A stretch of DNA of 64,000 bases from NCBI GenBank assembly GCA_964204605.1, contig OZ123195.1, forward strand, positions 280,076 to 344,075, written 5' to 3'. The notes under the pieces are model-generated. The model ran no database searches. It was not told the DNA's origin and saw nothing but the letters and a program-made list of their open reading frames with translations. The stretch is from Bacteroidota bacterium. Its GTDB lineage: Bacteria > Bacteroidota > Ignavibacteria > Kapaibacteriales > UBA961. A program made the position numbers and the translations under genes. Positions 588-57,221 of the stretch are shown here, one piece after another (positions within the stretch are counted from its first letter, which is position 1; each line of letters starts with the position of its first letter).

Positions 588-1721
588 ATGTTGCAAAGGC
601 TAAACTTTATTGATATACTAAGGGGATTGGCTTGTATTTGGATGATAGAAACACATGTAGTAAATGCATTCCTACCCGATGGATATAAAGATAATCTCAT
701 ATTTAATCTAATAGATATAAGCAATGGATTTGTTGCTGTTTGTTTTATTTTTTGTGCAGGAGCTGGCTTTAGGCTTGCTTTAGAATCAAAATTTAAAGAG
801 TACATAACAATGAGTGCTCCATTACTTAGTTATGTGAAACGTTTATTATTTATCCTTGCTATTGCATATTGGATTCAAACGCCAGAATTTTCTTTGCAAA
901 AAACACTTCAATCAAGTTCAGAAGAATTTTCAAAATTCTTTATGTGTAATGTATTGCAGCTAATTGTTGCTTCTTCATTACTTTCTCTAGCGCTTCTGAT
1001 AAGTACCAGATCATTTTTCAGATTTAGAATAGCATCATATCTAATACTTATTATTTTCTTTTGGTGTACCCCTTTTATATGGTCAATACCTCAAGATCAA
1101 TTAGGATGGATTCCACTATTTTTGAGAATGTATATTGTTACTCAACCAACCTCTTTATTCCCATTGTTCCCATGGGCTGGATATTATTTTGCGGGAATAA
1201 TAGTAACGGATTTGTTTTTGATTTCACAAGACAAAGATTCAATAATAAAAAAAATGATCATAGCTTCTTTGGGAATAACAGCATTTGCTTTTATCAGTAA
1301 AGAGTATCTATGGCAATATTATCCTAGTACACTTAATTGGTGGTATGTTTCACCCGTTCATGCTTTATTTAGAACTGCTGGAGTAATAATATTATTTTCT
1401 TTATTCTATATGTTTAAAGATTATTGTACGGGTAAGAAATCAGCTTTTATGCAATTACTTGGTAAAGAATCATTGGTAGTATATGTAGGGCAAGGGATGC
1501 TAATTTATGGATCTGTTGCTAGTAAAGGACTTCAGTATTTTCTCCCAATTATCGTAAGTCCATTAGAGGTATTATTGCTTACATCTGGAATTACTGCTTC
1601 TATGGGTGCATATGCAAATATGTGGAATCACTTTAAAAGGCATTCTCCAGAACAAGCTCAATGGGTTCTCTATGCATTCTGTACTTTATTTGTTATAGCT
1701 TTTATTATTATCCCAGTTTAA
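588..1721 (+). CDS. Polytopic membrane protein, DUF1624 / heparan-alpha-glucosaminide N-acetyltransferase-like acyltransferase family
   Basis: N-terminal motif FIDILRGLACIWMIETH is typical of the DUF1624/acyltransferase-3-like membrane family. Hydrophobic segments recur throughout. Confidence 0.45.
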   Translation: MLQRLNFIDILRGLACIWMIETHVVNAFLPDGYKDNLIFNLIDISNGFVAVCFIFCAGAGFRLALESKFKEYITMSAPLLSYVKRLLFILAIAYWIQTPEFSLQKTLQSSSEEFSKFFMCNVLQLIVASSLLSLALLISTRSFFRFRIASYLILIIFFWCTPFIWSIPQDQLGWIPLFLRMYIVTQPTSLFPLFPWAGYYFAGIIVTDLFLISQDKDSIIKKMIIASLGITAFAFISKEYLWQYYPSTLNWWYVSPVHALFRTAGVIILFSLFYMFKDYCTGKKSAFMQLLGKESLVVYVGQGMLIYGSVASKGLQYFLPIIVSPLEVLLLTSGITASMGAYANMWNHFKRHSPEQAQWVLYAFCTLFVIAFIIIPV

Positions 1722-2108
1722 ATGTTTCAAAATAAACAAACCGTGAGAAGAGTAAAATACAGAAAGATTGCAGTATAATGAAAGAAGATGAAGTGAGAAA
1801 AACATGTCTATTGATACATGGAATGCTAAACTTTTGATATGTAAAGAAAATAAAGATAAAAATTTATCATTAGACTATGTACATGAATACATGCTTAATG
1901 AATAATATGCAACATATTGATATATATAGACCTTAGGTGTATTATTAAGCACATTATATTAGATATTGAACAGTAATTATTCTAGGTATTTTAACTATTA
2001 ATATTGAGTAGTTAATAACAAAGATGAAAAACAGTTATTCAAACTAAGAAAAAACACTATTTTTGCGCATTCAATTATCACAGTAATCTAATTTTTTGGA
2101 ATAGTACC

Positions 2109-2798
2109 ATGACAAGTCAAGAATTTCTTGAAAAACTCGATGCTATTATAAATGATCGTCATTTGCTACAGCATCCTTTCTATCAAATGTGGAATACCGG
2201 TGATTTATCACTGCAGATGCTACGTGAATATGCTTTTGAATATTATCAACAAGTACATCATTTCCCAACATATGTAAGTGCAACACATTCAAAGTGTGAT
2301 GATATTGAGATTCGTCAAATGCTTTTAGAAAATCTAATTGAAGAAGAGCATGGGCCGAATAATCATCCAGAATTATGGCGTAGATTTGGTGATGCACTAG
2401 GTATTAGCCGCGAAGAAATGATGTCCCGTAAATATTTGCCGCATACAAAAAAATCTGTAGAAATATTAAAAGACTTAGCATCTAGGAATAATCCAGCAGA
2501 AGGTTTAGCAGCATTATATGCTTATGAATCACAAATTCCTGAAGTATGCACTACAAAAATTGAAGGTTTAAAGAATAAATATAATCTTGATAATGAAGAT
2601 GCATTAGTATTCTTTGAAGTTCACGAGCATGCTGATGAAATCCACAGAGAAGTTACAAGAGAAGCATTAGTTCGTTTATGTACAACTGATGAAAATAAGC
2701 ACATTGCCTTAGATGCCGCAAGAGAGGCTGCAGATGCATTAAATCTATTATTAGATGGTGTATATGAAACCTATTGTGTAGAGCGCATAGCAGCTTAA
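2109..2798 (+). CDS. CADD-family protein (heme-oxygenase-like di-iron oxidase; PqqC/TenA-like fold). Homolog of the Chlamydia CT610 'CADD' self-sacrificing p-aminobenzoate synthase family.
   Basis: Collinear matches to CT610 motifs along the whole length: FYxxWxxGxL, YAxxYYxxxxxFPxYxSAxHSxCDDxExRxxLLxNLxEExG, NHxxLWxxF, GVAALYxYESQIP, KIxGL, YFxxHExAD. Here these read HPFYQMWNTGDLS...YAFEYYQQVHHFPTYVSATHSKCDDIEIRQMLLENLIEEEHG...LAALYAYESQIP...FFEVHEHADEIH. Confidence 0.7.
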   Translation: MTSQEFLEKLDAIINDRHLLQHPFYQMWNTGDLSLQMLREYAFEYYQQVHHFPTYVSATHSKCDDIEIRQMLLENLIEEEHGPNNHPELWRRFGDALGISREEMMSRKYLPHTKKSVEILKDLASRNNPAEGLAALYAYESQIPEVCTTKIEGLKNKYNLDNEDALVFFEVHEHADEIHREVTREALVRLCTTDENKHIALDAAREAADALNLLLDGVYETYCVERIAA

Positions 2799-2807
2799 TG
2801 ATAGAAT

Positions 2808-2844
2808 AGAGAAAGATATCCGCTTTGGGAAAACTCGCAAAGCG
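2808..2844 (+). terminator. Rho-independent terminator after the CADD-family gene
   Basis: Perfect 10-bp stem ATCCGCTTTG / CAAAGCGGAT with a 10-nt loop, followed by TTTTTTT. Confidence 0.6.
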
Positions 2845-2979
2845 GATTTTTTTGTGATTTGGTTATTTGTGGATAACATTTACTGCTAAGAGCTATAATT
2901 GAGCTGAATGGAGTAGCATGGGCGTTGGTGAAGTGTCTTAGCTTTCGTATTTTAAGCATCTATTTACATTAAGTATATT

Positions 2980-3879
2980 ATGTGTCGTTTTGTTGCATAT
3001 ATCGGTACGCCAGTTTTGGCAAACGATCTTTTATATAAGCCTAAATACTCCTTGATTGCAGCTCAGAGCATGAATGCAGGCGAAATGAGTGTTCAGGTTA
3101 ATGGAGATGGTTTTGGTATTGGATGGTATGCACCTGATTTAGACAATGAGCCTTGTGTATTTAGAAGTATTAAACCCGCCTGGAGCGATCAAAATTTACG
3201 TCATTTAGCAAGAAAGATTTATTCTCCTGTCATTTTTGCTCATATTCGAGCAGCTTCCCAAGGGATGTCTGTTGAAGAGTATAATTCACATCCATTTTCA
3301 TATGGAAAATTAACATTCATGCATAATGGTGTTATAGGTGGATTTAAAGAAATTCGCAGAAAGCTTCTAAGAAGATTAAGAGATACAGCTTATGATGCAA
3401 TTTTAGGTTCTACGGATTCTGAGCATTTATTTGGATTATTTCTTAATCATATAGCAGATCCTATGGGTAATGTTACATGTGATGAGATGGTTGAAGCAAT
3501 TCAGAAAGCACTTTTTGATTTAAGTGAATTACTTATTGAATGTAATGTAAAACATCATTCTTATATCAATGTTTGCATAACAAATGGTGTCAGTTTAATT
3601 GCAGTTCGATACACAACAAATCAGAGTGTTCAGCCTGCATCATTATATTATATGTATGGCAAAGAATATCATTGCAGAGCAGAGCATTGTACTATGGAAC
3701 CAGATAATGGAAAGCCATCAGCAATTGTTATTGCATCCGAGCCATTCACATATAAAAGATCTGAATGGATGAAAGTAGAGAGAAATTCATTGTTTATCGT
3801 TGATGAGACAATGAAGCTGAGTTTTAAAAATGTAGACCTTCCAATAGAGCATGCATTATTTGAAAATCAGATATTATAA
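2980..3879 (+). CDS. Stand-alone class II (Ntn-hydrolase) glutamine amidotransferase, EgtC/YafJ-like
   Basis: The Met is followed directly by a catalytic Cys (MCRFVAYIG), as in class II GATases where Cys1 becomes the nucleophile after Met removal. Conserved PFSYGKLTFMHNGVIGGF and HIRAASQG blocks resemble EgtC and YafJ. No fused synthase domain is present. Confidence 0.6.
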   Translation: MCRFVAYIGTPVLANDLLYKPKYSLIAAQSMNAGEMSVQVNGDGFGIGWYAPDLDNEPCVFRSIKPAWSDQNLRHLARKIYSPVIFAHIRAASQGMSVEEYNSHPFSYGKLTFMHNGVIGGFKEIRRKLLRRLRDTAYDAILGSTDSEHLFGLFLNHIADPMGNVTCDEMVEAIQKALFDLSELLIECNVKHHSYINVCITNGVSLIAVRYTTNQSVQPASLYYMYGKEYHCRAEHCTMEPDNGKPSAIVIASEPFTYKRSEWMKVERNSLFIVDETMKLSFKNVDLPIEHALFENQIL

Positions 3880-3930
3880 TGTATTACAATATTATGCTGA
3901 ATTAACTTTTTACAGTAAGCGAATACGCAT

Positions 3931-5895
3931 ATGGTTGAATTGATTTACTTAGTACCACTTTTGCCTTTAATTGGTTTTTTAATTATTGGCTTTTTTGGAA
4001 AAAAACTCAACAATGAAAAACTTGTTGGTGCAATTGCTAGTATTGCTGTTGGCGGTGCTTTTTTGGTTGCACTTGGCGCTTTTTTACAATTAACTGGTGA
4101 ATCTTCCGAAGCAAGAACCGAGCATATTGTCCGATTATTTACTTGGATTCAAGCAGGTTCTTTTCATATTGATATAGCATATCAAGTAGACCAACTATCA
4201 ATACTGTATACCTTGATTATCACTGGTATTGGCACTTTGATACACATTTATTCAATTGGATACATGCATGGAGATAAGAGCTTTCCACGTTTTTTTGCTT
4301 ATCTGAATTTATTTGTATTCATGATGTTAAACCTTGTACTAGCCAATAACTTTGTTCTTACTTTTCTTGGCTGGGAAGGTGTAGGATTATGTTCATATCT
4401 TCTTATTGGATTTTGGTATGACAGAAAATTCGAAGGTTCTCATATAGTTTGGACAGGTGATGCAGCAAAAAAGGCATTTATTGTTAATCGAATTGGTGAT
4501 TTTGGAGTATTGATTGCAATGTGCCTGATCTATATGCGATTTGGTTCTCTGGAATATACAACAGTGAATATGGCTGCAGCCTCTGGAGGAATTGATGCAG
4601 GATTAATTACTGCAATTACTTTGCTTTTATTTCTAGGTTGTACAGGTAAATCTGCGCAAATTCCCCTGGGTATCTGGTTGCCTGATGCGATGGCAGGTCC
4701 AACACCAGTATCTGCTTTGATCCATGCTGCAACTATGGTAACAGCCGGTATATTCCTTATAGCTCGTAACTCAACATTATTTGCTTTATCTGATACAACA
4801 ATGGCAATTATTACAGGTGTTGGTATTACAACAGCCTTAATAGCCGCTACAATTGGTATAGTTCAAAATGATATCAAAAAAGTATTAGCATATTCTACAG
4901 TAAGCCAACTAGGCTTTATGTTTATGGCTTTAGGAGTTGGAGCCTATACAGCTGCTGTGTTTCATGTGATGACTCATGCCTTTTTTAAAGCATTATTATT
5001 CCTAGGATCTGGATCTGTTATACACGGAATGCATGCTGAACAAGACATACAAAAAATGGGTGGATTAAAGAAGTATATGCCTCAGACCTATATCACATTC
5101 TTATTAGGAACCATTGCAATTTCAGGGATTTTCCCATTTTCAGGTTTCTTCTCTAAAGATGAAATTTTATGGAATGCATATGCAAATGGAAGTCCAATAT
5201 TATGGGGTGCCGGTGTTTTAGCTGCATTTTGTACAGCATTTTATATGTTCAGACTATTATATCTAACATTTTACGGAGAGGAAAGATTTGACCATCATCA
5301 TGTTCATCCTCATGAATCTCCGTTGACAATGACATTGCCCTTATGGATTTTAGCTATTCTGTCTGTTTTTGGTGGCTTATTAGGAATACCTAAAGCATTA
5401 TCAGGTGGTGTCGATATCAATATTCTTGAACATTGGTTAGAGCCAATCTTTGCAAATGCCAATAGCATTTTAGCTAGCCATCATAGTGATGCTCATCATC
5501 ATTCATTGGCCTTAGAATGGGGTTTAATGGCAGCATCATTAGCTATCGCTATAATTGGAATACTATATGCAGCATCTTTGTATAAAAAATCTTCAAGTAA
5601 ACCAGCTGAAATGGCAGCAAAGAATAAAGGAATCTATAATATTCTTTGGAATAAATATTTTGTTGATGAGATCTATCACAATGTATTCGTAGCTCCGATG
5701 TATAAGATATCTTTAGATTTTCTTTGGAAGATAGTAGATGTGCAAATAATAGATGGTATCGTAAATGGCAGTGCTAGAGCAATTGCAGTAAGCGCAGAAA
5801 ATCTCAGAAAGATTCAATCTGGTATTGCTCAAAACTATGCTTTAATGATGTTATTTGGCATTGTTGCTATTATTGCTTGGATGGTATTTGCATAA
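3931..5895 (+). CDS. nuoL: NADH-quinone oxidoreductase subunit L (antiporter-like subunit with long C-terminal amphipathic helix region)
   Basis: 654 aa. N-terminus LIYLVPLLPLIGFLIIGFFGKKL and core motifs WLPDAMAGPTPVSALIHAATMVTAGIFL and AYSTVSQLGFMFMALGVGAY are typical of NuoL/ND5. Confidence 0.85.
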   Translation: MVELIYLVPLLPLIGFLIIGFFGKKLNNEKLVGAIASIAVGGAFLVALGAFLQLTGESSEARTEHIVRLFTWIQAGSFHIDIAYQVDQLSILYTLIITGIGTLIHIYSIGYMHGDKSFPRFFAYLNLFVFMMLNLVLANNFVLTFLGWEGVGLCSYLLIGFWYDRKFEGSHIVWTGDAAKKAFIVNRIGDFGVLIAMCLIYMRFGSLEYTTVNMAAASGGIDAGLITAITLLLFLGCTGKSAQIPLGIWLPDAMAGPTPVSALIHAATMVTAGIFLIARNSTLFALSDTTMAIITGVGITTALIAATIGIVQNDIKKVLAYSTVSQLGFMFMALGVGAYTAAVFHVMTHAFFKALLFLGSGSVIHGMHAEQDIQKMGGLKKYMPQTYITFLLGTIAISGIFPFSGFFSKDEILWNAYANGSPILWGAGVLAAFCTAFYMFRLLYLTFYGEERFDHHHVHPHESPLTMTLPLWILAILSVFGGLLGIPKALSGGVDINILEHWLEPIFANANSILASHHSDAHHHSLALEWGLMAASLAIAIIGILYAASLYKKSSSKPAEMAAKNKGIYNILWNKYFVDEIYHNVFVAPMYKISLDFLWKIVDVQIIDGIVNGSARAIAVSAENLRKIQSGIAQNYALMMLFGIVAIIAWMVFA

Positions 5896-5921
5896 GACAT
5901 TTCAACATAAGACATTTAAAT

Positions 5922-6497
5922 ATGAATAATACACATCCGAATAATCAAGATATCGTGCAATCGATGAATGAATCATCATTATCAGTATTAGTATATTCAC
6001 TTACGATAGTAGTGGTATTATTAGTATCATTTATGCTCTACTTTCCACAGGCATTAGCAATTGGATCATTAGATGTTTCTAGTTTGCCAAAGCTTAATGC
6101 ATTCCTGAATGGATCTTGTAGTGTATTATTAATGCTTGGTGTTTATTTTATTAAGAATAAAAAAAGACAAGCACATAAGACAGTAATGCTCAGTGCATTT
6201 ACATTATCAGTGTTGTTCTTATTGTCTTATGTATTATATCATTCACAAGCACCGGCTACGCATTATGGTGGTGAAGGTATAATCAAGATAATATACTTTT
6301 TCATATTGATAACACATATAATATTGGCTGCTTGTATAGTTCCTTTAGCTTTATTTACATTGCTCCGGGCATGGAGAAGCGAGTTTGTAAGGCATAAGGC
6401 AATTGCAAAGTGGACATTTCCCATATGGTTATATGTAACGATAACAGGCGTAATCGTATATCTTATGATTTCGCCATATTATCAAGTTAAGCCTTAA
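5922..6497 (+). CDS. DUF420 family membrane protein (family usually found near heme-copper oxidase/SCO genes)
   Basis: Four predicted TM helices and the C-terminal motif HKAIAKWTFPIWLYVTITGVIVY, which resembles the DUF420 signature. The ORF-track start at 5877 overlaps the nuoL stop. The internal ATG at 5922 (MNNTHPNN) is preferred. Confidence 0.5.
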   Translation: MNNTHPNNQDIVQSMNESSLSVLVYSLTIVVVLLVSFMLYFPQALAIGSLDVSSLPKLNAFLNGSCSVLLMLGVYFIKNKKRQAHKTVMLSAFTLSVLFLLSYVLYHSQAPATHYGGEGIIKIIYFFILITHIILAACIVPLALFTLLRAWRSEFVRHKAIAKWTFPIWLYVTITGVIVYLMISPYYQVKP

Positions 6498-6602
6498 GCA
6501 TAGTAATATGCATATATAATTTAGAGTAAAAGCCGCAAGGCATTTTGATATCATTTGTCAGTTCCTAAGCGTGACACAATGCCACATACCGAATCAGCTG
6601 GA

Positions 6603-8180
6603 ATGTTATTATTAACATTACTATTACCATTATTTGGATTTATAGCCGTGCTATTTATAGATAAAGCACAAGAAAAGGCTATACGTTTTACAACAATGAT
6701 GATATCCTTGCTAACCTTTGGGTTTTCACTTCCCTTATGGTTTTCTTTCAATAGTTCTATTGATGGATTTCAGTTCTACACAAATATTCCTTGGATATCT
6801 TCTACGGATTCAGGGTTTAGAATTGGCATTGATGGGATGTCCTTATTATTAGTATTGCTAACAACATTCATTATGCCAATAGCATTGCTTTCATCCTTTG
6901 AACCAATTAAGAAAAGAGTAAAAGAATATTATGCAATGATGCTTCTTCTAGAATTGGGGATGCTGGGTGTTTTTATATCATTAGATACGATGGTATTTTA
7001 TGTTTTTTGGGAATTAATCTTAATACCCATGTATTTCTTAATCGGAATATGGGGTGGCAAAGATAGAATCTATGCAGCTGTTAAGTTCTTCCTCTATACT
7101 TTAGTTGGCTCATTGTTAATGCTATTAGCTATTGTATGGTTGGGATTATATGCAAAAGGTTTACCGGGTGGGCATTTTACAACAGACTTCTTAGTATTAA
7201 GAGAAATTGCCCCTTCGATCCCAATGGATATCCAAATATGGCTATTCTTGGCATTTGCACTTTCATTTTGTATAAAAGTGCCATTAATGCCATTCCATAC
7301 ATGGTTGCCTGATGCCCATGTGCAAGCACCAACAGCTGGATCTGTTATACTTGCCGGTGTACTTCTTAAGATGGGTACATATGGATTAATACGATTTAAT
7401 GTAGAATTGTTCCCAATGGCCATGCATCAATTTGCCGTCCCAATTGCTTGGTTATCAGTTGCGGGAATTATTTATGGTGCATTAGTAGCTATGGTTCAAA
7501 CTGATATTAAGAAACTTGTTGCATATTCTTCGGTGAGTCATCTAGGTTTTGTGGTTTTGGGTATTGCATCTATGACACCAGAGGGACTTCAAGGAGCAAT
7601 AATACAAATGGTTAATCATGGATTATCCACAGGTATGTTGTTTTTATGTGTTGGTGCATTATATGAAAGACGCCATACCAGAGAAATATCTGAATTTGGT
7701 GGAATAACCAAAGTAATGCCAAAATTTGCTGTCTTTTTTGTCATTGCAATACTTGCCTCAGTTGGATTACCAGGCCTTAATGGTTTTATTGGTGAATTTC
7801 TAACATTATTTGGAGCATTCCAATCTCCATTTTTGAATAATCCATGGTTTAGCATTTTAAGTTCTACAGGAGTAATTTTTTCTGCTGTGTATTTATTGTG
7901 GATGTTCCAAAGAGTAATGTTTGGAACAAATGATAATCCATCCAATCATTCATTGAAAGATTTGCATAGAAGTGAATATTGGCAATTAGTACCAATGGTC
8001 ATATTTATCGTTTGGATTGGTATATATCCATCTACCTTTATGTCCAAATCTGAACTGTATGTTCAAACATTAATTGGTAAAGTTGAAAAAAAGGTATTTG
8101 GAACAACAAAATATCCTTTAATAAAAGCAGCAACATCTGTAGAATCCGGAACTTCGCATGAAGTTCATGGCGGACATTAA
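6603..8180 (+). CDS. nuoM: NADH-quinone oxidoreductase subunit M
   Basis: Antiporter-like subunit motifs WLPDAHVQAPTAGSVILAGVLLKMGTYG and AYSSVSHLGFVVLGI. The track ORF starts at 6555, but the NuoM-like N-terminus MLLLTLLLPLFG begins at 6603. Start is ambiguous (6555, 6579 or 6603). Confidence 0.8.
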   Translation: MLLLTLLLPLFGFIAVLFIDKAQEKAIRFTTMMISLLTFGFSLPLWFSFNSSIDGFQFYTNIPWISSTDSGFRIGIDGMSLLLVLLTTFIMPIALLSSFEPIKKRVKEYYAMMLLLELGMLGVFISLDTMVFYVFWELILIPMYFLIGIWGGKDRIYAAVKFFLYTLVGSLLMLLAIVWLGLYAKGLPGGHFTTDFLVLREIAPSIPMDIQIWLFLAFALSFCIKVPLMPFHTWLPDAHVQAPTAGSVILAGVLLKMGTYGLIRFNVELFPMAMHQFAVPIAWLSVAGIIYGALVAMVQTDIKKLVAYSSVSHLGFVVLGIASMTPEGLQGAIIQMVNHGLSTGMLFLCVGALYERRHTREISEFGGITKVMPKFAVFFVIAILASVGLPGLNGFIGEFLTLFGAFQSPFLNNPWFSILSSTGVIFSAVYLLWMFQRVMFGTNDNPSNHSLKDLHRSEYWQLVPMVIFIVWIGIYPSTFMSKSELYVQTLIGKVEKKVFGTTKYPLIKAATSVESGTSHEVHGGH

Positions 8181-8208
8181 TAATGAATTTCAGTGAAGGA
8201 TACATCTA

Positions 8209-8469
8209 ATGGCTAATCTATTAAGAAAAATCTTCGAAAAACCTTATGACTGGAAAAAAAACGGTCATGATATCACAAATCAATGGAAATCTCTTAAAGT
8301 TGGTGATACTGTTGAATTTGCTATGACGGTTACCGAAGATATAGTATATACAATAGAACATATCTATGCCGATTCAGCAGAAGCTTCTATTAGAGTACAA
8401 TCTAAAGATGGAAGTGCCGCCCAGGCATATCGCGTTGGTTTGGTAATGTTACGACCATGTTCAAAATAA
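8209..8469 (+). CDS. Hypothetical 86-aa soluble protein between nuoM and nuoN
   Basis: Complete ORF with AAGGA 11 nt upstream of the ATG, tightly packed between nuoM (end 8180) and nuoN (start 8507). No recognisable family. Confidence 0.35.
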   Translation: MANLLRKIFEKPYDWKKNGHDITNQWKSLKVGDTVEFAMTVTEDIVYTIEHIYADSAEASIRVQSKDGSAAQAYRVGLVMLRPCSK

Positions 8470-8506
8470 GACCAGAAAACAAAAGAGAATTTAATCAAGG
8501 AATATA

Positions 8507-9943
8507 TTGATGGTACAAGATTTACTTTTTACAGCACCCTTTACCTTTTTATCTGTCATGGCAATTATTGCTATGGTATTGGATGCTTTAATTGTTAACA
8601 GTTCCAGAATTACATTTATTTTTAGTGCTATTACACTTCTTATTAGTGGTATCCTTGGTATATCAACTTTTGGACTACATGGCATTGGATTTAATGGAAT
8701 GGTTACAGGCGGTGGGTTTGCTGCATATTTTGATATTCTTTTTTCTATTGGCGGATTATTAACAATACTTACTTCAAGACAATATTTGCAAAGAGAAAAT
8801 ATAGAGCATGATGAATTTTATTCATTAGTCTTATTTGCAGTTGCTGGAATGATGCTAATTGCACATTCAAATCATTTATTAATCCTATTTATAGGCATTG
8901 AAGTGATGTCGGTTTCATTCTATATCCTTTCAGGATATATGCGCAATAATGCAAAATCTGTAGAATCTTCATTGAAATACTTTCTTTTAGGAGCATTTGC
9001 AACAGGGTTTTTGGTGTATGGAATAGCATTAATTTATGGCTCTACTGGAAGTATGGATTATAATCAAATAGCATTAAATATCAATAATAATGCACTTAAT
9101 TTTCCAGCTTTATTGCCTGTTGGTGTAGCTTTAATAGTTATTGGCCTTAGTTTCAAGGCGGCGGCATTCCCATTCCATCAATGGGCTCCTGATGTATATC
9201 AAGGTGCGCCAACTATTGTTACAGCTTTTATGAGTACAGCAGGTAAAGCAGCTGCTTTTGCTGCATTTATTCCTATTGTTACTGTTTTAATGCCATCAGC
9301 CCCAGTGAAATTACAAATGATCTTTGCTGTGATGTCTGCAGCAACAATGTTGATTGGTAATATCAGTGCATTAGCTCAAACTAATATCAAAAGAATGCTT
9401 GCATTTTCATCTGTTGCACATGCTGGCTATATTATGATGGGCCTTGTGTCTGGATCGCAATATGGTTATAGTGGCATAGTATTCTACTTAACTGCGTATA
9501 TGTTTATGCAAATAGGTTCTTTTATTATAGTTGCGATACTAGAAAGAAATGGCGAAAAATATTTAGAATTATCTGATTATGCTGGACTAAGCAAAAGGCA
9601 TCCAGTATTAGCGGCATTTATGACAATATTTATGTTTTCATTAGCTGGAATACCTCCATTTGCTGGATTCTTTGGCAAATATTTCTTGTTTACTGCTGCA
9701 ATTGATGCTGGATTTTTATGGCTTACATTAGTTGGTGTTTTATCTTCAATAATCTCAGTCTATTTTTATATTGGACTCATCGTCAAAATGTATTTTACAG
9801 AACCTGAAGGCCAAAGAGAAGATAATGAAGTTGGAATGTCTGGTCTATCACTTATCATAACAATTGCTGGAGTAATTGTACTTGGTATTTTACCTTCTGG
9901 CATTTTATCGATTGCCTCCAATTTGTTTAATAGTACACATTAA
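8507..9943 (+). CDS. nuoN: NADH-quinone oxidoreductase subunit N
   Basis: 478 aa. Motifs FHQWAPDVYQGAPTIVTAFMSTAGKAAAF and AFSSVAHAGYIMMGL are typical of NuoN/ND2. Confidence 0.8.
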   Translation: MMVQDLLFTAPFTFLSVMAIIAMVLDALIVNSSRITFIFSAITLLISGILGISTFGLHGIGFNGMVTGGGFAAYFDILFSIGGLLTILTSRQYLQRENIEHDEFYSLVLFAVAGMMLIAHSNHLLILFIGIEVMSVSFYILSGYMRNNAKSVESSLKYFLLGAFATGFLVYGIALIYGSTGSMDYNQIALNINNNALNFPALLPVGVALIVIGLSFKAAAFPFHQWAPDVYQGAPTIVTAFMSTAGKAAAFAAFIPIVTVLMPSAPVKLQMIFAVMSAATMLIGNISALAQTNIKRMLAFSSVAHAGYIMMGLVSGSQYGYSGIVFYLTAYMFMQIGSFIIVAILERNGEKYLELSDYAGLSKRHPVLAAFMTIFMFSLAGIPPFAGFFGKYFLFTAAIDAGFLWLTLVGVLSSIISVYFYIGLIVKMYFTEPEGQREDNEVGMSGLSLIITIAGVIVLGILPSGILSIASNLFNSTH

Positions 9944-26661: not shown

Positions 26662-29600
26662 TTATTTAAGGCTAATAACTTCTGTCCATTCTAAATTGCC
26701 AGACTTCAATCTTACATAATATATGCCGGTTGGAAGGCTAGACAGATTAAGTTGATGCTTATATATTCCATTGTCATTTGTAGCAAAAGGTATAGATATC
26801 ATATTCTGTCCTAATACTGATGTAATTGAAAGTATACCTTGTACAGAAGTATAATGCTGTAATGATAAGGTTATAATATCAGAAGCTGGATTTGGATATA
26901 TAACAAATGACTTTTTTGTTGTCCAATCTTGTAAAGACGTTGCTACTCTAAAGCCAAAAGATTGATTTTTGCATGAATTTATGTCTCCAATTTCAACAAC
27001 ATAGTTTCCAGTGCCATTTCTTTGGGTATATGTTAATGTTCTTGATGTAGCTCCTTGTATCAGAACACTGTCTTTGTACCATTGATATGTAATGGCATCA
27101 GTAATACATGTTAAAGTAGAATCATTTATTTTATCTATAATTGGCTGATAGGGGCGTTTATTGACTTTTACTGTAATTGAATCATATATAGTACATTGCA
27201 ATGCATCTTTTATTTCAATTTTGAATAAAGTGGTTGCATTAGGGCGCGCAATTGGAACTTGTTCGATTAAACTGCTCAAGCCACCACTGCTTGGTGTCCA
27301 CTTATATTTGTAAGGTGGTGTGCCACCTTTAATAATAAGCGGTAATTGAATAGAATCACCTTCACAAATTATAAATGAATCTGGCAATTCAGTGCTTAAT
27401 GCTGGATTGACAATTACATTAATCGTATCTTTTACTACGCAAAAACTTCCATCAATTACTGTGCATATATACGTAGTTGTTTTTGCTGGATTTGCTAATG
27501 GCCTTGCAATAGAAACCGAACTTAATCCTGCAACTGGTTCCCATGAATATTGATATGGTGGAAGGCCTCCAGAGACAATATTCCCAATTTCTTTTCCTGA
27601 AGACTCACATAAAACTATATCGGGTGCATAACCAAATTTAGTATTACAAGCCGCACCGGTTCTAAAATCTATTTCACCAGGAGTATTATAATTATTACAG
27701 AACCAACGGCTAAAGTGTTGTGTATTACCTTCGGCTAATTTATATTCAAATCTCATTCTCCATTTATAGGAAGAATTTACGGTAAGTGCGCTAATATTCT
27801 GAACGATATCTTTTAGGCCTTGGATATCTGTCCAAGTTGATGAAGTAACTGTATTTTTATTATTAAATGCTTGATTTAATGGTTTAACTTCTATAATTGG
27901 ACGTATAAATGTTCTTCCAGTGAATGGAAAATATGATGCACCAATATCTACAGAGCTTGAATTCTCGACTCGTAATGATGTAGTAATAGGAGAGTTAGTT
28001 CCTTTTTTATACTGCAATGTGCTACCTTTAGACCCAGTATTTCCATTGCCATAAAATATAGCAACCATGCCATTTTTGGGGTTAAAGCCGGAATCGTATG
28101 ATCTTGTAGAAACAGCTAAATCAGGGTAACCATCGCCATTTATATCTGCAATTGGAGCAATGCATGCGCCAGCGGTTTCTTGTATACCAGATGATTTATA
28201 TGTCCAAACCGGTAAAGCAGATAGACCATTCGAAGATCCAAGATACAGGCGTGATCTATGTGCATTTGCATTTGATGAATATAAGCCCGAGCCTACAACG
28301 ATATCCCCATATCCATCATTATTGATATCACCAATAGACCCAGCAGACTTTCCAAATTCTAATGCTGTGATGTCTCCCTCGGCTGTCCATATTGATTGCT
28401 TCGATGCACCTTTTGCAGACCCTAAAAATAGCTGGATTATTCCTTCATTTGTTTGGCCTTTATCATATAAAGTAGATGCAATTAATACATCTGAAAATCC
28501 ATCATTATTGATATCTCCAGCGGATGCTACATTAGCGCCAAATAATGCTTTATATTGATTCCCAGAGACAATCCATCCTGCAGAATCTGCTATTCCATTA
28601 GGAATGCCATAATGAATATAAACGCGCCCTTGATCATCTTGAGCTGAATTAACATCATATGATGGAGCTCCAATGATAATGTCATTTATGCCATCTCCAT
28701 TGATATCACCTGCCGAAGCAACTGATGCACCAAATTCTGATCCTGTTTGTGGGCCAATTTTAGACCAATAATTATTAGTATTCAAACCGTATTCGCTTCC
28801 AAACATTACATTCGCTTTACCTGCATTTTCTATAGTAGAAGAAAATCCTGGTTCACCTAAAACAATATCTGAATATCCATCTAGATTGATATCACCTGCA
28901 TAGCATAAAGAAAATCCAAATTTCCCACCAGCTTGTGAACCTGAGAACACAGTTTTTGCTTTTAGTTCTAAACCTGTTTTAGAGCCATAATAGACATAAA
29001 TTCTTCCAATATCTTGCTGTGATGAATTTGCATCATCAAAAAAAGGCGCACTAACAATTAAGTCAGCAAATCCATCTCCATTAAGATCTCCATTAGCTGC
29101 TATTGCATATCCAAAACCCGCTCCATTTTGATTTGGCCCAATCAATTCATTCTTTGCCACAATATCTATTCCAGATGCACTACCATAATGAATGGTTACT
29201 CTTCCTTGATCTGCAGATATGCCATCATAAAATGGCGATCCAACTGCAAAATCACCAAATCCATCACCATTAAAATCTGCTCTGCCGGAAACTGTCCATC
29301 CATATTCTTCATTATCTTGTGCTGCTTCTATTACTTGATTAGGGCTTATTGCAAAAAAGATTTGTTTGCCATAAGAAACGGTGATAGCACCTTCTTGTAA
29401 TTGACCATTTTTATAGTATGGTGCACCGGCACATATATCTGATATTCCGTCTCCATTAATATCGCCACATATACCAATTGAAGTCCCAAGTTTGGCTCCA
29501 GCCTGATCACTTTCAGAAAATAATTTGCCAGTGCTTAGTCCTGTTTGAGAACCATAATATGTGAACACAGCACCTTCTTGATTTTGCCCTGATGAAAATC

Positions 29601-32600
29601 CTGGGCATCCAGCAATCATATCTGATATACCATCTGCATTAAAATCTCCATAACCTGATAGAGATGTACCAAGTTTACTTCCATTAGTATTACTTTCGGT
29701 ATACCAAGATGGTATAAGGCTTAAGCCCTGTGTATTGCCATAAAATACATTGATAACACCTTCATTATTTTGTCCATTTGAAAAACTGGGTGCTCCAATT
29801 GCAATATCGGTGAAACCATCCATGTTTACATCGCCAATATTTGCTATTGCATAACCTAAATCACTATTATCATTAGAGATTGAATATCGCCAATTAACAG
29901 TATCAGATGGTTTAGTTTTTCTTCCAAAATAGCAGAAAACTCCACCTTCTGGGGCTATATCAGAATCACTATTATACGATGGAGCGCCAATAAATATATC
30001 ATTGTATGTATCAGCATTTATATCTGCAGAGGCAATAGTAGCACCAAATCTGCATCCAGAATTAGGGCCATAAGAAGTCCATAAAATAGAATCTGGGCCA
30101 ATTGGATTGCCTGAAAAAAGCATCACCATACCAACATTACCATTACTATTTGATGCACCAGGAGCACCAACCAGAATATCAGAAAAACCATCATTATTGA
30201 TATCTCCGGCACTTGCTACGCTTGCGCCAAGATTCGCTGCACTTTGATTTGATTCATATTGCCAAAAAGGAGAAGATGAGCTAATACCTTGGGCACTACC
30301 CAAGAAAATCATCAGTTTCCCTTCGGCATTTTGTCCATTAGAATAACCTGGGGCTCCAACAAGAATATCAGAATACCCATCGCCATTAATATCACCTGCA
30401 CTAGCTACAGATGCACCCATTCTGGCATTCATAGAATTGCTTTCATATATCCATGAAGGGGTAGAGCTAAAACCTGATGCACTACCAAGATAGACTTGTA
30501 TTCGCCCTTCGGATTGCTCACCGTTTTCATAATCAGGAGACCCCGCAATCATATCATCATAACCGTCGCCGTTGATATCGCCTGCAGGGGCTAATGAAGC
30601 ACCTAATTGCGCTAATGGAATATCAGTTTCTAAAACCTTATCTGATGAACTTAAAGAAGAGCTTATTCCATAATAAATGGAAACTTGACCTTCTTCTCTG
30701 AGATCATCATCATAGTATGGAGCTCCAATGCCAAAATCAGACTTTGTATCAAAATTAATATCACCTAGTCCAGAAACTGAAGTACCAAATTGAGCATCTG
30801 CTTGATTGCCTTCTGATGTCCACCCAGCATTTTGGCTAATTGACACTGTATTTCCGAAATAGAGATATGCTTTTCCTTCATCTAATTGTCCATTATCATA
30901 GAGTGGCGCGCCAATAATGAAATCTGCATTGCCATCATTATTTACATCACCAGCACAGGCAACACTTTGGCCATATCGTGCATTGGCTTGATTGCTTTCA
31001 TTTGTCCAAGCCGGATTAGTACTTAAACCATTAGATGTTCCATAAAAACAATATGCTCTACCTTCACTTTGTTCTCCATTTGAATAAAATGGAGCACCAA
31101 TAAGAACATCATTAAAACCGTCGCCATTCAGATCACTACATAAGGTAACAGAAGTTCCACATTCTGCATTAGCTTGATTAGATTCAAATTGCCATGCAGC
31201 ATTTGTGGAAAGTCCATTTGTAGATGAAAAATACACTCTAACGCAACCCTCATTTATATGCCCATTGTCATAAAAGGGGATTCCAATAAGTAAATCTGAT
31301 TTTGAATCTCCATTAATGTCCATACCACCTGAAATAGAAATACCCATTCTTGCATCAATCTGATTACTTTCTACCATCCATGGTGAAGTATTTGCAAGAG
31401 ATCCATTTCCACCAAAATAAACAAAAACAGCTCCTTCATCTAATGATCCATTATCATAATAAGGGGCAGAGATTGCGATGTCTAAAGTATCATCATTATT
31501 GGCTTTTCCTGCAGAACTTATGGCATATCCAAACCGCGCATTTGCTTGATTTGATTCTTTCATTATAGCTGGAGTACTAATGATTCCAGAAGAACTTCCT
31601 AAATATAAGAATGCTGCACCTTCATCTAATTGGCCATTATCATAACGAGGTGCACCAACCATGATATCATCATAACCATCTTTATTGATATCTCCAATTC
31701 CTGCAACAGAAAATCCAAACTCGGAATTAGCTTGTCCTGAAGATAGAACAATTTGAGGTTGTTTTTCTGGTCCATTTACTGATCCTAAAAAAACAAAAAC
31801 TGCTCCTTCATCTGTTTTTGCAATATCATATTTTGGCATACCTGCTGCAAAGTCACCGATATCATCACCATTTATATCGCCTAAAGGAGTTAAAACATAA
31901 CCAAAGAAAGCTTCAAATTGATTACCATCCATACTCCAATCTGGTGTAGCTGATAATGGATCTATCGTTATAGGATATACTGCTTGTTTATCATCAATAT
32001 GCAAAGCAATAGTGTTATTGTGCAAAGAAAATGATGCATCTAGTAATGTATTGTTGGCATCCCATACTTTTAAATCTTTATAGGTGATAACGATTTCAGA
32101 ACTATGTTTATCTATGAAGGCAATACCATCATTATTCATTAATAAAGGCTTTAATTCATCACTTTGTGTTTTAAGCTCAACAGTTAATGTTGAATCTCCC
32201 ATTGGTTGAGAATGCACAATAAAGTTTTGTCTTAAACCTTGTTTTGAATTTATATATTCGATAGTAAAATGTTCATTGCTGATATTCATCAAAGAGTCAT
32301 TGATATTTACATGTGGATTATCAGAGATCTTAAGGCTAATAGCACCTTTATGAATGCTTTGTAATTCTATGGTGTTTTTCCAAGTATTCTTGTCTAAACT
32401 TTGCAATGAAAATGAATAATCACAAAATTCAATTGCTACATGTTGAGTAGGATTCTTAGAAGTATAGGTATAAGAACTGGATTCGATTCCAAATTCAGAA
32501 TGATTGTTTTGGCTACATACAATGGATTTTTTTGATACAGTATCCATCAAATAACAAAAATCTATATCTAAAAAAGTTAAAGCTGAAACAGCGATAATGA

Positions 32601-32697
32601 GAGATAAAAACAATCCCTTATAAACAGTGCCTTTAAAGCCCATTTGTAGAGTCTCCGCATGAAAATGATAAATACTAAGAATAATGCTACTCTTCAA
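26662..32697 (-). CDS. Giant (2011 aa) secreted FG-GAP-repeat protein with SprB-like repeats and a T9SS C-terminal sorting domain
   Basis: Signal peptide. More than 20 tandem FG-GAP units (GDINGDGYDD / GDVNNDGNADFIIGAP). Two G[GT]xPPYxYxW SprB-type repeats near the C-terminus. Terminal FVIYPNPASDIITLSL...GIYYVRLKS...ISLK matches the T9SS type-A sorting domain (TIGR04183-like). Confidence 0.8.
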   Translation of the reverse strand: MKSSIILSIYHFHAETLQMGFKGTVYKGLFLSLIIAVSALTFLDIDFCYLMDTVSKKSIVCSQNNHSEFGIESSSYTYTSKNPTQHVAIEFCDYSFSLQSLDKNTWKNTIELQSIHKGAISLKISDNPHVNINDSLMNISNEHFTIEYINSKQGLRQNFIVHSQPMGDSTLTVELKTQSDELKPLLMNNDGIAFIDKHSSEIVITYKDLKVWDANNTLLDASFSLHNNTIALHIDDKQAVYPITIDPLSATPDWSMDGNQFEAFFGYVLTPLGDINGDDIGDFAAGMPKYDIAKTDEGAVFVFLGSVNGPEKQPQIVLSSGQANSEFGFSVAGIGDINKDGYDDIMVGAPRYDNGQLDEGAAFLYLGSSSGIISTPAIMKESNQANARFGYAISSAGKANNDDTLDIAISAPYYDNGSLDEGAVFVYFGGNGSLANTSPWMVESNQIDARMGISISGGMDINGDSKSDLLIGIPFYDNGHINEGCVRVYFSSTNGLSTNAAWQFESNQANAECGTSVTLCSDLNGDGFNDVLIGAPFYSNGEQSEGRAYCFYGTSNGLSTNPAWTNESNQANARYGQSVACAGDVNNDGNADFIIGAPLYDNGQLDEGKAYLYFGNTVSISQNAGWTSEGNQADAQFGTSVSGLGDINFDTKSDFGIGAPYYDDDLREEGQVSIYYGISSSLSSSDKVLETDIPLAQLGASLAPAGDINGDGYDDMIAGSPDYENGEQSEGRIQVYLGSASGFSSTPSWIYESNSMNARMGASVASAGDINGDGYSDILVGAPGYSNGQNAEGKLMIFLGSAQGISSSSPFWQYESNQSAANLGASVASAGDINNDGFSDILVGAPGASNSNGNVGMVMLFSGNPIGPDSILWTSYGPNSGCRFGATIASADINADTYNDIFIGAPSYNSDSDIAPEGGVFCYFGRKTKPSDTVNWRYSISNDNSDLGYAIANIGDVNMDGFTDIAIGAPSFSNGQNNEGVINVFYGNTQGLSLIPSWYTESNTNGSKLGTSLSGYGDFNADGISDMIAGCPGFSSGQNQEGAVFTYYGSQTGLSTGKLFSESDQAGAKLGTSIGICGDINGDGISDICAGAPYYKNGQLQEGAITVSYGKQIFFAISPNQVIEAAQDNEEYGWTVSGRADFNGDGFGDFAVGSPFYDGISADQGRVTIHYGSASGIDIVAKNELIGPNQNGAGFGYAIAANGDLNGDGFADLIVSAPFFDDANSSQQDIGRIYVYYGSKTGLELKAKTVFSGSQAGGKFGFSLCYAGDINLDGYSDIVLGEPGFSSTIENAGKANVMFGSEYGLNTNNYWSKIGPQTGSEFGASVASAGDINGDGINDIIIGAPSYDVNSAQDDQGRVYIHYGIPNGIADSAGWIVSGNQYKALFGANVASAGDINNDGFSDVLIASTLYDKGQTNEGIIQLFLGSAKGASKQSIWTAEGDITALEFGKSAGSIGDINNDGYGDIVVGSGLYSSNANAHRSRLYLGSSNGLSALPVWTYKSSGIQETAGACIAPIADINGDGYPDLAVSTRSYDSGFNPKNGMVAIFYGNGNTGSKGSTLQYKKGTNSPITTSLRVENSSSVDIGASYFPFTGRTFIRPIIEVKPLNQAFNNKNTVTSSTWTDIQGLKDIVQNISALTVNSSYKWRMRFEYKLAEGNTQHFSRWFCNNYNTPGEIDFRTGAACNTKFGYAPDIVLCESSGKEIGNIVSGGLPPYQYSWEPVAGLSSVSIARPLANPAKTTTYICTVIDGSFCVVKDTINVIVNPALSTELPDSFIICEGDSIQLPLIIKGGTPPYKYKWTPSSGGLSSLIEQVPIARPNATTLFKIEIKDALQCTIYDSITVKVNKRPYQPIIDKINDSTLTCITDAITYQWYKDSVLIQGATSRTLTYTQRNGTGNYVVEIGDINSCKNQSFGFRVATSLQDWTTKKSFVIYPNPASDIITLSLQHYTSVQGILSITSVLGQNMISIPFATNDNGIYKHQLNLSSLPTGIYYVRLKSGNLEWTEVISLK

Positions 32698-55590: not shown

Positions 55591-56088
55591 TTATTTGTAC
55601 TGACGTAAAAATTCTAATCTATCTTGAAGTTGAGCAATTGGTATTAGTAACTTATCTTTTCCTAAAATAGCTTCTTCTTGACTTGTAAAAACTAATTCAT
55701 AATCTTTACTCATAATGATTGCTTCTTCCGGACACACTTCCTCGCAAAAGCCACAATAGATACATCGTAACATATTGATTTCAAATTTTACTGGATAACG
55801 TTCTTTAACGTTATCTGTTTCTCCAGCCTGAACTTCAATAGCAAGGGCTGGGCAAACCCTAGAACATAAACCACATGCTACACAACGTTCTCCATCTTCT
55901 TCTAATACCAAAACCGGGCGTCCACGATAAGAGCCTGTTGGTATCCACCGCTCTTCAGGGTATTGTCTGGTAAATGTTGGTTCAAACATCTGTTTGAATG
56001 TTAAAGAAAGACCTCTTGCTATTTCAGGAAGATAAATTTTTTCCCAGAATGACATTCTTTCTAATTCGGTGTTCTTCTTTATATTCAT
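55591..56088 (-). CDS. nuoI: NADH-quinone oxidoreductase subunit I (2x[4Fe-4S])
   Basis: [12 protein letters not shown] and [12 protein letters not shown]. NuoI-typical N-terminus with YPEE. Confidence 0.85.
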
Positions 56089-56127
56089 GTATTATTCTCT
56101 AAAAATCTGCTTTGTATACTCTGTTAA

Positions 56128-57189: not shown

Positions 57190-57221
57190 CTATTACCTGT
57201 ATTCAATTAGCTGTTAAATAA

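Follow-up and report, generated by a model that had tools for sequence, protein, structure and literature searches.

A CADD-family gene and an EgtC-like amidotransferase gene as probable neighbors by descent in one Ignavibacteria/Kapaibacteria-type clade

Enzymes of the CADD family have been characterized in Chlamydia and Nitrosomonas, where the roles of a tyrosine, a lysine and the metal ligands were proven experimentally (PMC9522330, PMC11965152, PMC4161248): Tyr27 is the sacrificed scaffold and Lys152 the amine donor (PMC9522330, PMC11965152). These enzymes require no partner protein, and CT610 or NE1434 alone complements E. coli delta-pabABC (PMC11965152, PMC4161248); in vitro, the known CADDs give a very low yield of <0.1 p-aminobenzoate (pABA) per monomer (PMC11965152). 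For the ergothioneine (egt) genes that also enter this analysis, Methylobacterium offers a precedent for a dispersed egtC (PMC5790434).

The locus described here lies in a 64-kb window (the whole stretch of DNA that was analyzed, 64,000 nucleotides of contig OZ123195.1), in which a CADD-family gene is followed by a gene for a stand-alone class II amidotransferase-fold protein (GATase) and then by nuoL (Table 1). Both open reading frames stand where an earlier, sequence-only reading of this DNA had placed them. That reading also proposed that the two proteins serve a variant pABA route. From a comparison sample of ~180 related loci, with 80 species-representative CADD loci, we instead favor, with a probability of roughly 0.7, two functionally independent genes that became neighbors once in a single Ignavibacteria/Kapaibacteria-type clade (Bacteroidota sensu GTDB): a pABA synthase transcribed on its own and, at the head of nuoLMN, an amidohydrolase of the EgtC type.

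Table 1. Features of the locus, numbered from the first letter of the window
Position	Strand	Feature	Basis
2109..2798	+	CADD-family (PabS-type) predicted self-sacrificing di-metal p-aminobenzoate synthase, 229 aa	TIGR04305 score, PDB matches, invariant residues
2818..2854	+	Intrinsic terminator 3' of the CADD gene: 10-bp G+C-rich stem (ATCCGCTTTG / CAAAGCGGAT), then T-run	Folding energy, conservation
2870..2956	+	Promoter-like region for the GATase-nuoL unit	Consensus scan and conservation; putative promoter function
2980..3879	+	Stand-alone class II (Ntn, Cys2 nucleophile) amidotransferase-fold protein, EgtC/SPO2029 group, 299 aa	Pfam, EgtC model, PDB/Foldseek; first gene of the nuoL unit
3931..5895	+	nuoL (NADH-quinone oxidoreductase subunit L)	NF005141, 763 bits vs cutoff 556; 51 bp 3' of GATase
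5877-6497	+	DUF420 membrane protein	Pfam/NCBIfam; same unit
6555-8180	+	nuoM	Pfam/NCBIfam; same unit
8209-8469	+	86-aa ORF	Same unit
8507-9943	+	nuoN	Pfam/NCBIfam; rest of unit is 5877..9943

Two genes and the region between them

Judged by its family profile, the first gene encodes a predicted CADD-family pABA synthase and not PqqC or TenA. The protein scores 285.4 bits against TIGR04305 ('CADD family putative folate metabolism protein'; curated cutoff 200), compared with 64.2 bits for PqqC (cutoff 240), 42.3 for BesC and 20.4 for TenA. In a phmmer search of the PDB, the closest solved structures are 9pj4 (179 bits) and 8va9 (164 bits), both deposited as 4-aminobenzoate synthase; CT610 (1rcw) scores 166 bits over residues 5-218, and PqqC structures score ~50 bits. 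A PqqC or TenA identity is ruled out by the profile scores and the PDB ranking, and the likeness to CT610 on which the sequence-only reading had relied holds at 39% identity. Y25 (CT610 Tyr27) and K150 (Lys152) are invariant in 86/86 homologs. So are the metal ligands E79, H86, E140, H172, D176 and H179, also in alignment A1; they correspond to CT610 E81, H88, E142, H174, D178 and H181 and form a three-His, three-carboxylate di-metal site. We infer that the protein produces pABA: as a heme-oxygenase-like di-metal oxygenase of the CADD/PabS type, it would cleave the side chain of its own Tyr25 to yield pABA for folate, take the amine from its own Lys150 and require just metal, O2 and a reductant.

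In the source genome, the CADD gene appears monocistronic and would be transcribed alone as far as a conserved intrinsic terminator. The hairpin at 2818-2847 with its T-run has a folding energy of -21.7 kcal/mol (z = -5.2), matched by 0/200 shuffles, and the stem and T-run are kept around a variable loop in 6/6 aligned genomes of context A, the terminator-bearing arrangement. This agrees with the terminator that had been read between the two genes from the letters alone; our consensus scan, limited to loops of 3-8 nt, missed the hairpin, probably because its loop exceeds that limit. Farther downstream lie a sigma-70-like match, TGGATA-18-TATAAT, at 2870-2899 (consensus scan) and two blocks 5' of the GATase gene, GTTGGTGAAGTGT at 2924-2936 and TTTCGTATTTTAAG at 2943-2956, that are invariant among context-A relatives (alignment A2). 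Elsewhere in the 64-kb window, no further copies of this conserved upstream block rise above chance, and an Rfam search of 1500-4100 at E<=1 for riboswitches or known RNAs in the spacers gave just two chance-level matches. The 51-bp gap to nuoL holds no terminator-like site, so the direct, terminator-free junction described earlier stands. We infer two transcription units: CADD alone, and the GATase gene, with a promoter-like region of its own, at the head of nuoL-DUF420-nuoM-nuoN. The gene order of the nuo unit is repeated in relatives L001, L009, L010, L015 and L051.

The second gene encodes what domain and fold comparisons predict to be a single-domain, Cys-nucleophile class II amidotransferase-fold protein; its earlier description as a single-domain, EgtC-like Ntn protein is thus upheld. 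It matches PF13230 GATase_4 (60.6 bits, cutoff 23) and PF13522 GATase_6 (38.1 bits). The best NCBIfam model, and the sole one strongly matched, is EgtC (TIGR03442), at 187.6 bits, under the equivalog cutoff of 218.65, with an end-to-end alignment of residues 1-281 to model positions 1-247 of 251; four orthologs tested, including the egt-linked P0109, score 185-189 bits on the same model. The protein starts Met-Cys (M1-C2-R3) and carries no fused synthase. The nucleophile and glutamyl-binding residues (C2, R90, N116-G117 and D146) are invariant in the window clade as well as in five canonical EgtCs that adjoin egtB, and ~30 residues are invariant as far as these canonical EgtCs, which are only 30-33% identical to the window protein.

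Structural comparison points the same way. A sequence search of the PDB returned 3mdn (SPO2029) at 136 bits (E 1.7e-38) and EgtC at 57 bits, and Foldseek with an AF2 model (pTM 0.81) placed 3mdn (TM 0.83-0.85) and EgtC (TM 0.75-0.78) on top, with GlmS and PurF domains well behind. A true glutamine-dependent amidotransferase would have a fused or dedicated partner synthase; because the window protein has a single domain, nuoL is the only conserved partner found and CADD adjoins it in one clade only, we do not class it as one. After removal of the initiator Met, Cys2 would attack a gamma-glutamyl amide bond.

The GATase gene, egt clusters and the nuo unit

Profile searches and tblastn found no egt, pab or fol genes in the 64-kb window, and the earlier statement that egtB and egtD are missing is valid for that window only. 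In relatives, egtB-egtD-egtA lies upstream of GATase orthologs on the same strand in L093 and L096, as does egtD-egtA in L097 (59-62% identity); in L093, EgtB reaches 416 bits against a cutoff of 360 and EgtD 356 against 291. None of these three egt clusters has another egtC, and their GCS2 gene (EgtA-like, sub-cutoff) suggests the gamma-glutamylcysteine route, for which an EgtC would be required. As a dispersed egtC, the neighboring 'class II glutamine amidotransferase' is a candidate to serve egtB-egtD-egtA clusters that have none of their own. The protein's most likely activity, at a little under even odds, would be the ergothioneine-pathway step that releases glutamate from hercynyl-gamma-glutamylcysteine sulfoxide, in which case the remaining egt genes would lie outside the window; alternatively, it might hydrolyze another gamma-glutamyl or glutamine amide.

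In the egt-linked relatives, the GATase gene is set apart from egtA by two or three intervening genes that are unrelated: lpd, a DinB-family gene and lipB, plus a WD40 gene on the reverse strand in L096. In L090 and L178, the GATase-nuoL block is present but egt genes were not seen around it; none were seen near the GATase gene in contexts A, B and D or at the RibD-linked loci, and in L099 egtBDA stands without a GATase of this type inside 10 kb. Among the matches listed, egtD occurred on no trio-bearing contig (trio meaning CADD-GATase-nuoL). When EgtD matches were compared with GATase and CADD matches, the sole pairing among those listed, P0277-P0104, was egt-linked and not a trio; a metagenome scan with a Kapaibacterium EgtD gave only <=53% identity and, again among the matches listed, none on a trio contig.

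These observations are also what one would expect of a generic YafJ-like class II amidotransferase unrelated to ergothioneine, with egt proximity in the three relatives a coincidence of synteny. Such a protein would fit the sub-cutoff EgtC score, an uncharacterized nearest solved relative (SPO2029), the housekeeping lpd and lipB between the GATase and egt genes, the egtBDA of L099 and the contexts where no egt genes were seen. We nevertheless consider it improbable, given that EgtC alone among family models is matched strongly and over its full length, that Foldseek ranks SPO2029 and EgtC (E ~1e-13 to 1e-15; EgtC ~1e-13) far above YafJ-like 1te5 (E ~1e-8), and that three separate genomes show the egt(B)DA-...-GATase order and have no other egtC in their egt clusters.

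A functional tie to complex I (NuoL/M/N), in assembly, modification or regulation of its membrane arm, would explain why the GATase gene is kept as the nuoLMN leader. Its adjacency to nuoL is the most persistent of all, being found behind five upstream contexts (CADD plus terminator; ClpS|CADD; lpd-lipB with or without egtBDA; and divergent CutA1), with short gaps of 21 bp in L178 and 66 bp in L096 and a 4-bp overlap in context B, where it outlasts the nuoL-nuoM link. Against this, we are aware of no biochemical connection of complex I with Ntn amidohydrolases, three RibD-linked orthologs have no nuoL nearby, and no nuo association has been reported for canonical EgtCs or SPO2029. A neutral account is enough, in that breakpoints would be selected against in a gene that sits between a promoter and the essential nuoLMN, and we regard the functional tie as unlikely.

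CADD-GATase adjacency across relatives

The sequence-only reading had asked whether the pairing recurs in related genomes. It does, at 15/80 species-representative CADD loci, as well as on further metagenome contigs, in two flanking contexts, and so it is not incidental in the simplest sense; adjacency was counted by tblastn, since simple ORF calls erred in high-GC loci. In context B, a sister group of 12 species-level loci, the order is CADD-(6-21 bp)-GATase-(4-bp overlap)-nuoL, and because the three genes are so tightly packed, they are almost certainly co-transcribed. The trio has survived a change of both flanks between contexts A and B.

All 15 paired loci belong to one Ignavibacteria/Kapaibacteria-type clade and are monophyletic in the GATase tree, and we therefore count them as a single juxtaposition event. 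At the remaining 65/80 CADD loci, most of them with 8 kb of sequence to either side, no GATase was found nearby, including Kapabacteria/Chlorobiota CADDs nested among the paired ones (L013, L016 and L017, 8 kb flank); L016 retains ClpS|CADD without GATase-NuoL. Conversely, GATase orthologs without CADD (L089-L097, L178 and L179; 59-66% identity) sit after lpd-lipB (with egtB/egtD/egtA ahead of it in three cases), after RibD or immediately at the head of nuoLMN. Paired and unpaired CADDs differ at no pairing-specific residue, and the GATases differ at two conservative substitutions only. Across other lineages, the 10 CADD neighbors sampled are heterogeneous (WD40, CobW, DUF7676, SIS, FAD oxidase, beta-eliminating lyase or no family), and 0/10 are fol genes.

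The single paired clade, the 65/80 CADD loci without GATase, the GATases without CADD, the lack of correlated substitutions, the varied CADD neighbors elsewhere and, in context A, the conserved terminator and promoter-like block between the genes together argue for gene independence. As far as genome comparison can indicate, CADD and GATase would be neighbors by descent in one clade, not partners in a new pathway. We count against this preferred explanation the tight context-B trio, the sub-cutoff EgtC score and low identity of the GATase to canonical EgtCs, the unrelated genes between it and egtA, the lack of egt genes in view at L090 and L178, and the lack of egtD on trio-bearing contigs among the matches listed.

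If the GATase did work with CADD, glutamine-derived ammonia could spare Lys150 or allow turnover, or a CADD-derived intermediate could lose a gamma-glutamyl group through GATase action; were a self-sacrificing enzyme shown to have a glutaminase partner, the view of CADD-type pABA synthesis would change. The low in vitro yield leaves room for such a helper (PMC11965152), the recurrence in two contexts and the tight context-B operon speak for a partnership, and the literature searched contains no paper that names CADD, pABA and 'glutamine amidotransferase' together. This variant route, which the sequence-only reading had proposed, nonetheless seems very unlikely to us: the pairing arose once, is missing from all other CADD lineages sampled and from relatives nested in the paired clade, and at least four further contexts have the GATase but no CADD. 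Neither protein carries pairing-specific substitutions, the donor Lys150 is kept in every homolog, a conserved terminator parts the genes in the source genome, and the known enzymes complement E. coli unaided (PMC4161248, PMC11965152). Also very unlikely is a narrower reading for context B, in which the amidohydrolase was recruited as a pABA-synthase helper whose glutamine ammonia spares the lysine or permits turnover, or in an unrecognized role with the complex I membrane arm. The locus is also a cautionary case, showing how adjacency over 15 species, even in a tight operon, can stem from a single juxtaposition and not from shared function.

Comparison with known systems

The result mostly tidies annotation, placing a CADD-type pABA synthase with intact functional residues in an Ignavibacteria/Kapaibacteria lineage. 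Close homologs of the window CADD are already so named in public records.

CADD/CT610 of Chlamydia trachomatis (1rcw, 8va9) and NePabS/NE1434 of Nitrosomonas europaea (presumably the protein in PDB 9pj4) have in common with the window CADD the family model TIGR04305, the six ligands, the Tyr and the Lys, at 39-43% identity over the full length. Like ne1434, the window gene is not clustered with folate genes, whereas Chlamydia CADD sits in a folBKPA-folC2 cluster. Its host belongs to another lineage, represented by an Ignavibacteria/Kapaibacteria-type metagenome-assembled genome, and its di-metal site could prefer either Fe/Fe or Mn/Fe.

For the GATase, the closest solved relative by both sequence and fold is SPO2029 of Ruegeria (Silicibacter) pomeroyi (3mdn), an uncharacterized class II amidotransferase-domain protein that branches outside the window clade. 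Stand-alone amidotransferases of the YafJ type (PA1307, 1te5) likewise have PF13230 and a single domain, although 1te5 is a much weaker structural match than EgtC or SPO2029. EgtC of Mycolicibacterium smegmatis (4zfj/4zfk/4zfl) is the gamma-glutamyl amidohydrolase of the ergothioneine pathway. The window GATase departs from it in its sub-cutoff score, its identity of about 22-33%, its ~50-65 additional residues and its place at the head of a nuoLMN unit, with no egtB or egtD beside it in the window; it resembles EgtC in its single Ntn domain and Met-Cys-Arg start, in a fold match over the full length and in the conserved Arg, Asn-Gly and Asp that bind the glutamyl group.

A single origin for the CADD–amidotransferase pairing

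Both ORFs flagged in the sequence-only reading are present where it placed them (see table): ORF1 encodes a CADD-family protein, a family of self-sacrificing p-aminobenzoate (pABA) synthases, and ORF2 an EgtC-like class II amidotransferase (GATase). Scanning with a CADD alignment at one genome per species, we retrieved 80 loci, with 8-kb flanks where contigs allowed. By tblastn, CADD, GATase and NuoL follow in order in 15 of these, counting L022, whose contig stops inside GATase with NuoL out of view. The pairing thus recurs in related genomes, but within one clade only, every CADD concerned being at least 70% identical to that of the window. No GATase was found by tblastn in the remaining 65 loci, among them cyanobacteria, Acidobacteriota, Latescibacterota, Marinimicrobia, Myxococcales, archaea and, with full flanks, Kapabacteria/Chlorobiota loci L013, L016, L017, L024, L025 and L045. 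The nearest public match to the window is a Bacteroidota MAG (L009, Deming_bin.385; CADD 99%, GATase and NuoL 98% protein identity), followed by relatives labelled Ignavibacteria, Kapaibacteria or Chlorobiota. Taxon names given to MAGs are unreliable: several of the loci with all three genes have implausible ones (for example, Hyphomicrobiales or Chloroflexota).

The three genes occur in two contexts. Context A, that of the window, reads HGSNAT ... CADD, GATase, NuoL, DUF420, NuoM, NuoN, with a structured CADD–GATase spacer of 180–237 bp and 39–71 bp before nuoL. Context B, found in a sister group, reads ClpS, CADD, GATase, NuoL, SRAP, AhpC, and NuoM and NuoN do not follow; CADD and GATase lie 6–21 bp apart (32 bp in L022), and the GATase stop lies within a 4-bp overlap with the start of nuoL. 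This spacing is that of a tight operon, and it speaks for a real coupling of CADD and GATase, which we nonetheless consider improbable given the history of the two genes. In simple distance trees (neighbor-joining for GATase), the context A and B GATases form one derived clade, sister to a RibD-linked group, with egt/lpd-linked sequences, then 3mdn, then canonical EgtCs as successive outer groups. This topology implies that the GATase–nuoL adjacency is ancestral and that the CADD adjacency arose once. The modules also split again, as indicated by L016, which keeps ClpS and CADD and lacks GATase–NuoL, and by unpaired CADDs (L012, L013, L016 and L017) nested among paired ones in the CADD tree. 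We found no residues specific to GATase-linked CADDs, and the only fixed differences between CADD-linked and CADD-free GATases are two conservative ones (V to I at 64 and L to M at 278). GATase orthologs also occur without CADD. The earlier proposal that the two proteins form a variant pABA pathway is left unsupported, and the evidence is in keeping with two independent genes whose juxtaposition happened a single time in this lineage. CADD would then act as a monocistronic pABA synthase, and GATase as an EgtC-type amidohydrolase leading the nuoLMN unit. No pab, fol or egt genes were found within the 64-kb window, and among the best 120 and the best 80 hits of two EgtD searches none lay on a contig carrying CADD, GATase and NuoL together.

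Features of the window discussed in the text
Feature	Position	Strand	Description
5' region of CADD gene	1722–2108		AT-rich intergenic, 387 bp
CADD gene (ORF1)	2109–2798	+	229 aa
Hairpin before a T-run	2818–2847		terminator, −21.7 kcal/mol, z −5.2
Sigma-70-like match	2870–2899
Conserved block	2924–2956		second block in context-A alignment
GATase gene (ORF2)	2980–3879	+	299 aa
nuoL	3931–5895	+
nuoL-DUF420-nuoM-(86 aa)-nuoN	3931–9943	+	one window end
DUF420 gene	5877–6497		membrane protein
Small ORF	8209–8469		86 aa, no family
Surface/secreted protein (predicted)	26662–32697	−	2011 aa, FG-GAP repeats, type IX secretion sorting tail
Surface/secreted protein (predicted)	45778–49830	−	1350 aa, IgGFc_binding domain
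nuoG, nuoH, nuoI	55591–58985	−

A probable self-sufficient CADD enzyme

ORF1 belongs to CADD rather than PqqC or TenA, as first read, scoring 285.4 bits against TIGR04305 (cutoff 200) versus 64 bits for PqqC (cutoff 240) and 20 for TenA. Its best solved relatives, 9pj4 (179 bits) and 8va9 (164 bits), are both deposited as 4-aminobenzoate synthase; 1rcw, the Chlamydia trachomatis protein CT610, gives 166 bits and PqqC structures about 50. Y25 (CT610 Tyr27), K150 (Lys152) and the six ligands E79, H86, E140, H172, D176 and H179 are invariant when ORF1 is aligned with CT610, its Nitrosomonas counterpart and a diverse set of six homologs, and likewise in 86 of 86 homologs collected. In CADD enzymes, the tyrosine is the sacrificial carbon scaffold, the lysine the sacrificial amine donor and the ligands the di-metal site, and the Chlamydia and Nitrosomonas enzymes each substitute for PabABC in E. 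coli alone (PMC9522330, PMC11965152, PMC4161248). In other lineages CADD lies among varied neighbors, consistent with an enzyme that works without a partner.

Cyanobacterial CADDs (Okeania, Microcoleus, Dapis and Tychonema; L028–L049, L052, L053 and L055) share 64–68% identity with the window CADD, as near to it as some Kapaibacteria CADDs are, a closeness in sequence that suggests horizontal transfer between phyla. In Microcoleus, the gene lies downstream of a CobW-type GTPase gene and a WD40 gene. The region 5' of the window's CADD gene is unusually long; Rfam searches of it and of the spacers around CADD and GATase returned no match.

Transcription signals and the nuoL unit

Both ORFs lie within a 33% G+C stretch. 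The terminator read between them is borne out, its stem and T-run being kept and its loop variable in six of six context-A genomes aligned, and none was found in the 51 bp between GATase and nuoL, again as anticipated. The sigma-70-like match and the conserved block may constitute a promoter region for the GATase–nuoL unit, in which nuoL, the DUF420 gene, nuoM, the 86-aa ORF and nuoN follow GATase. The DUF420 gene, which overlaps the nuoL end, and the 86-aa ORF are both conserved in context-A relatives.

GATase stands directly 5' of nuoL behind five different upstream contexts (window 2980–5895; L004–L008, L090, L093, L096, L097 and L178), and in the context-B clade this adjacency outlasts that of nuoL and nuoM. 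We know of no functional link between an EgtC-like gene and nuoL; a simple neutral explanation is that the gene sits between a promoter and essential genes. Complex I genes are otherwise scattered: nuoG, nuoH and nuoI lie ~50 kb from nuoLMN on the opposite strand, and nuoJ and nuoK adjoin neither group. The window also encodes two very large proteins predicted to be secreted or on the cell surface.

GATase as a candidate dispersed EgtC

ORF2 is, as proposed, a stand-alone class II amidotransferase-fold protein (Pfam GATase_4 and GATase_6). Its only strong NCBIfam match is EgtC (TIGR03442), aligned end to end at 187.6 bits, under the curated cutoff of 218.65; four orthologs, one of them egt-linked, score 185–189 bits. 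By sequence, the nearest solved relative is the uncharacterized SPO2029 (3mdn, 136 bits), and the match to mycobacterial EgtC, at 57 bits, covers the 120 N-terminal residues. An AlphaFold2 model (pLDDT 76, pTM 0.81) matches 3mdn (TM 0.83–0.85) and full-length EgtC (TM 0.75–0.78, E ~1e-13) far ahead of GlmS/PurF glutaminase domains and YafJ-like 1te5 (E ~1e-8).

CADD-free orthologs (59–66% identity) occupy several other settings. L093 reads egtB-egtD-egtA-lpd-dinB-lipB-GATase-(Uma2)-nuoL-nuoM-nuoN; its EgtB (416 bits, cutoff 360) and EgtD (356 bits, cutoff 291) exceed curated cutoffs, and the intervening genes encode dihydrolipoyl dehydrogenase, a DinB-family protein (no NCBIfam match) and LipB. 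L096 differs from this block in lacking the DinB gene and in carrying an inserted WD40 gene on the reverse strand. In L097, from a MAG labelled Ca. Kapaibacterium, the order is egtD-egtA-lpd-dinB-GATase-nuoL; in L090 it is lpd-dinB-lipB-GATase-nuoLMN, and the part of that locus in view contains no egt genes. In L178, GATase directly heads nuoLMN, with a divergent CutA1 gene upstream; in L089, L092 and L179, it follows RibD, with no nuoL nearby.

Canonical egtC genes of other phyla adjoin egtB and egtD, and their proteins are just 30–33% identical to ORF2. Many egtB-egtD-egtA clusters have no egtC within or near them. Their hosts must either remove the glutamate with an enzyme encoded at another site or dispense with this step. 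The pattern is common in metagenome loci (L099, L106, L112, L118, L144 and L167). Together with the egt-linked orthologs and the EgtC model scores, these clusters make a dispersed EgtC a reasonable, if unproven, assignment for ORF2, one with a precedent in Methylobacterium, where egtC is encoded apart from egtBD (PMC5790434).
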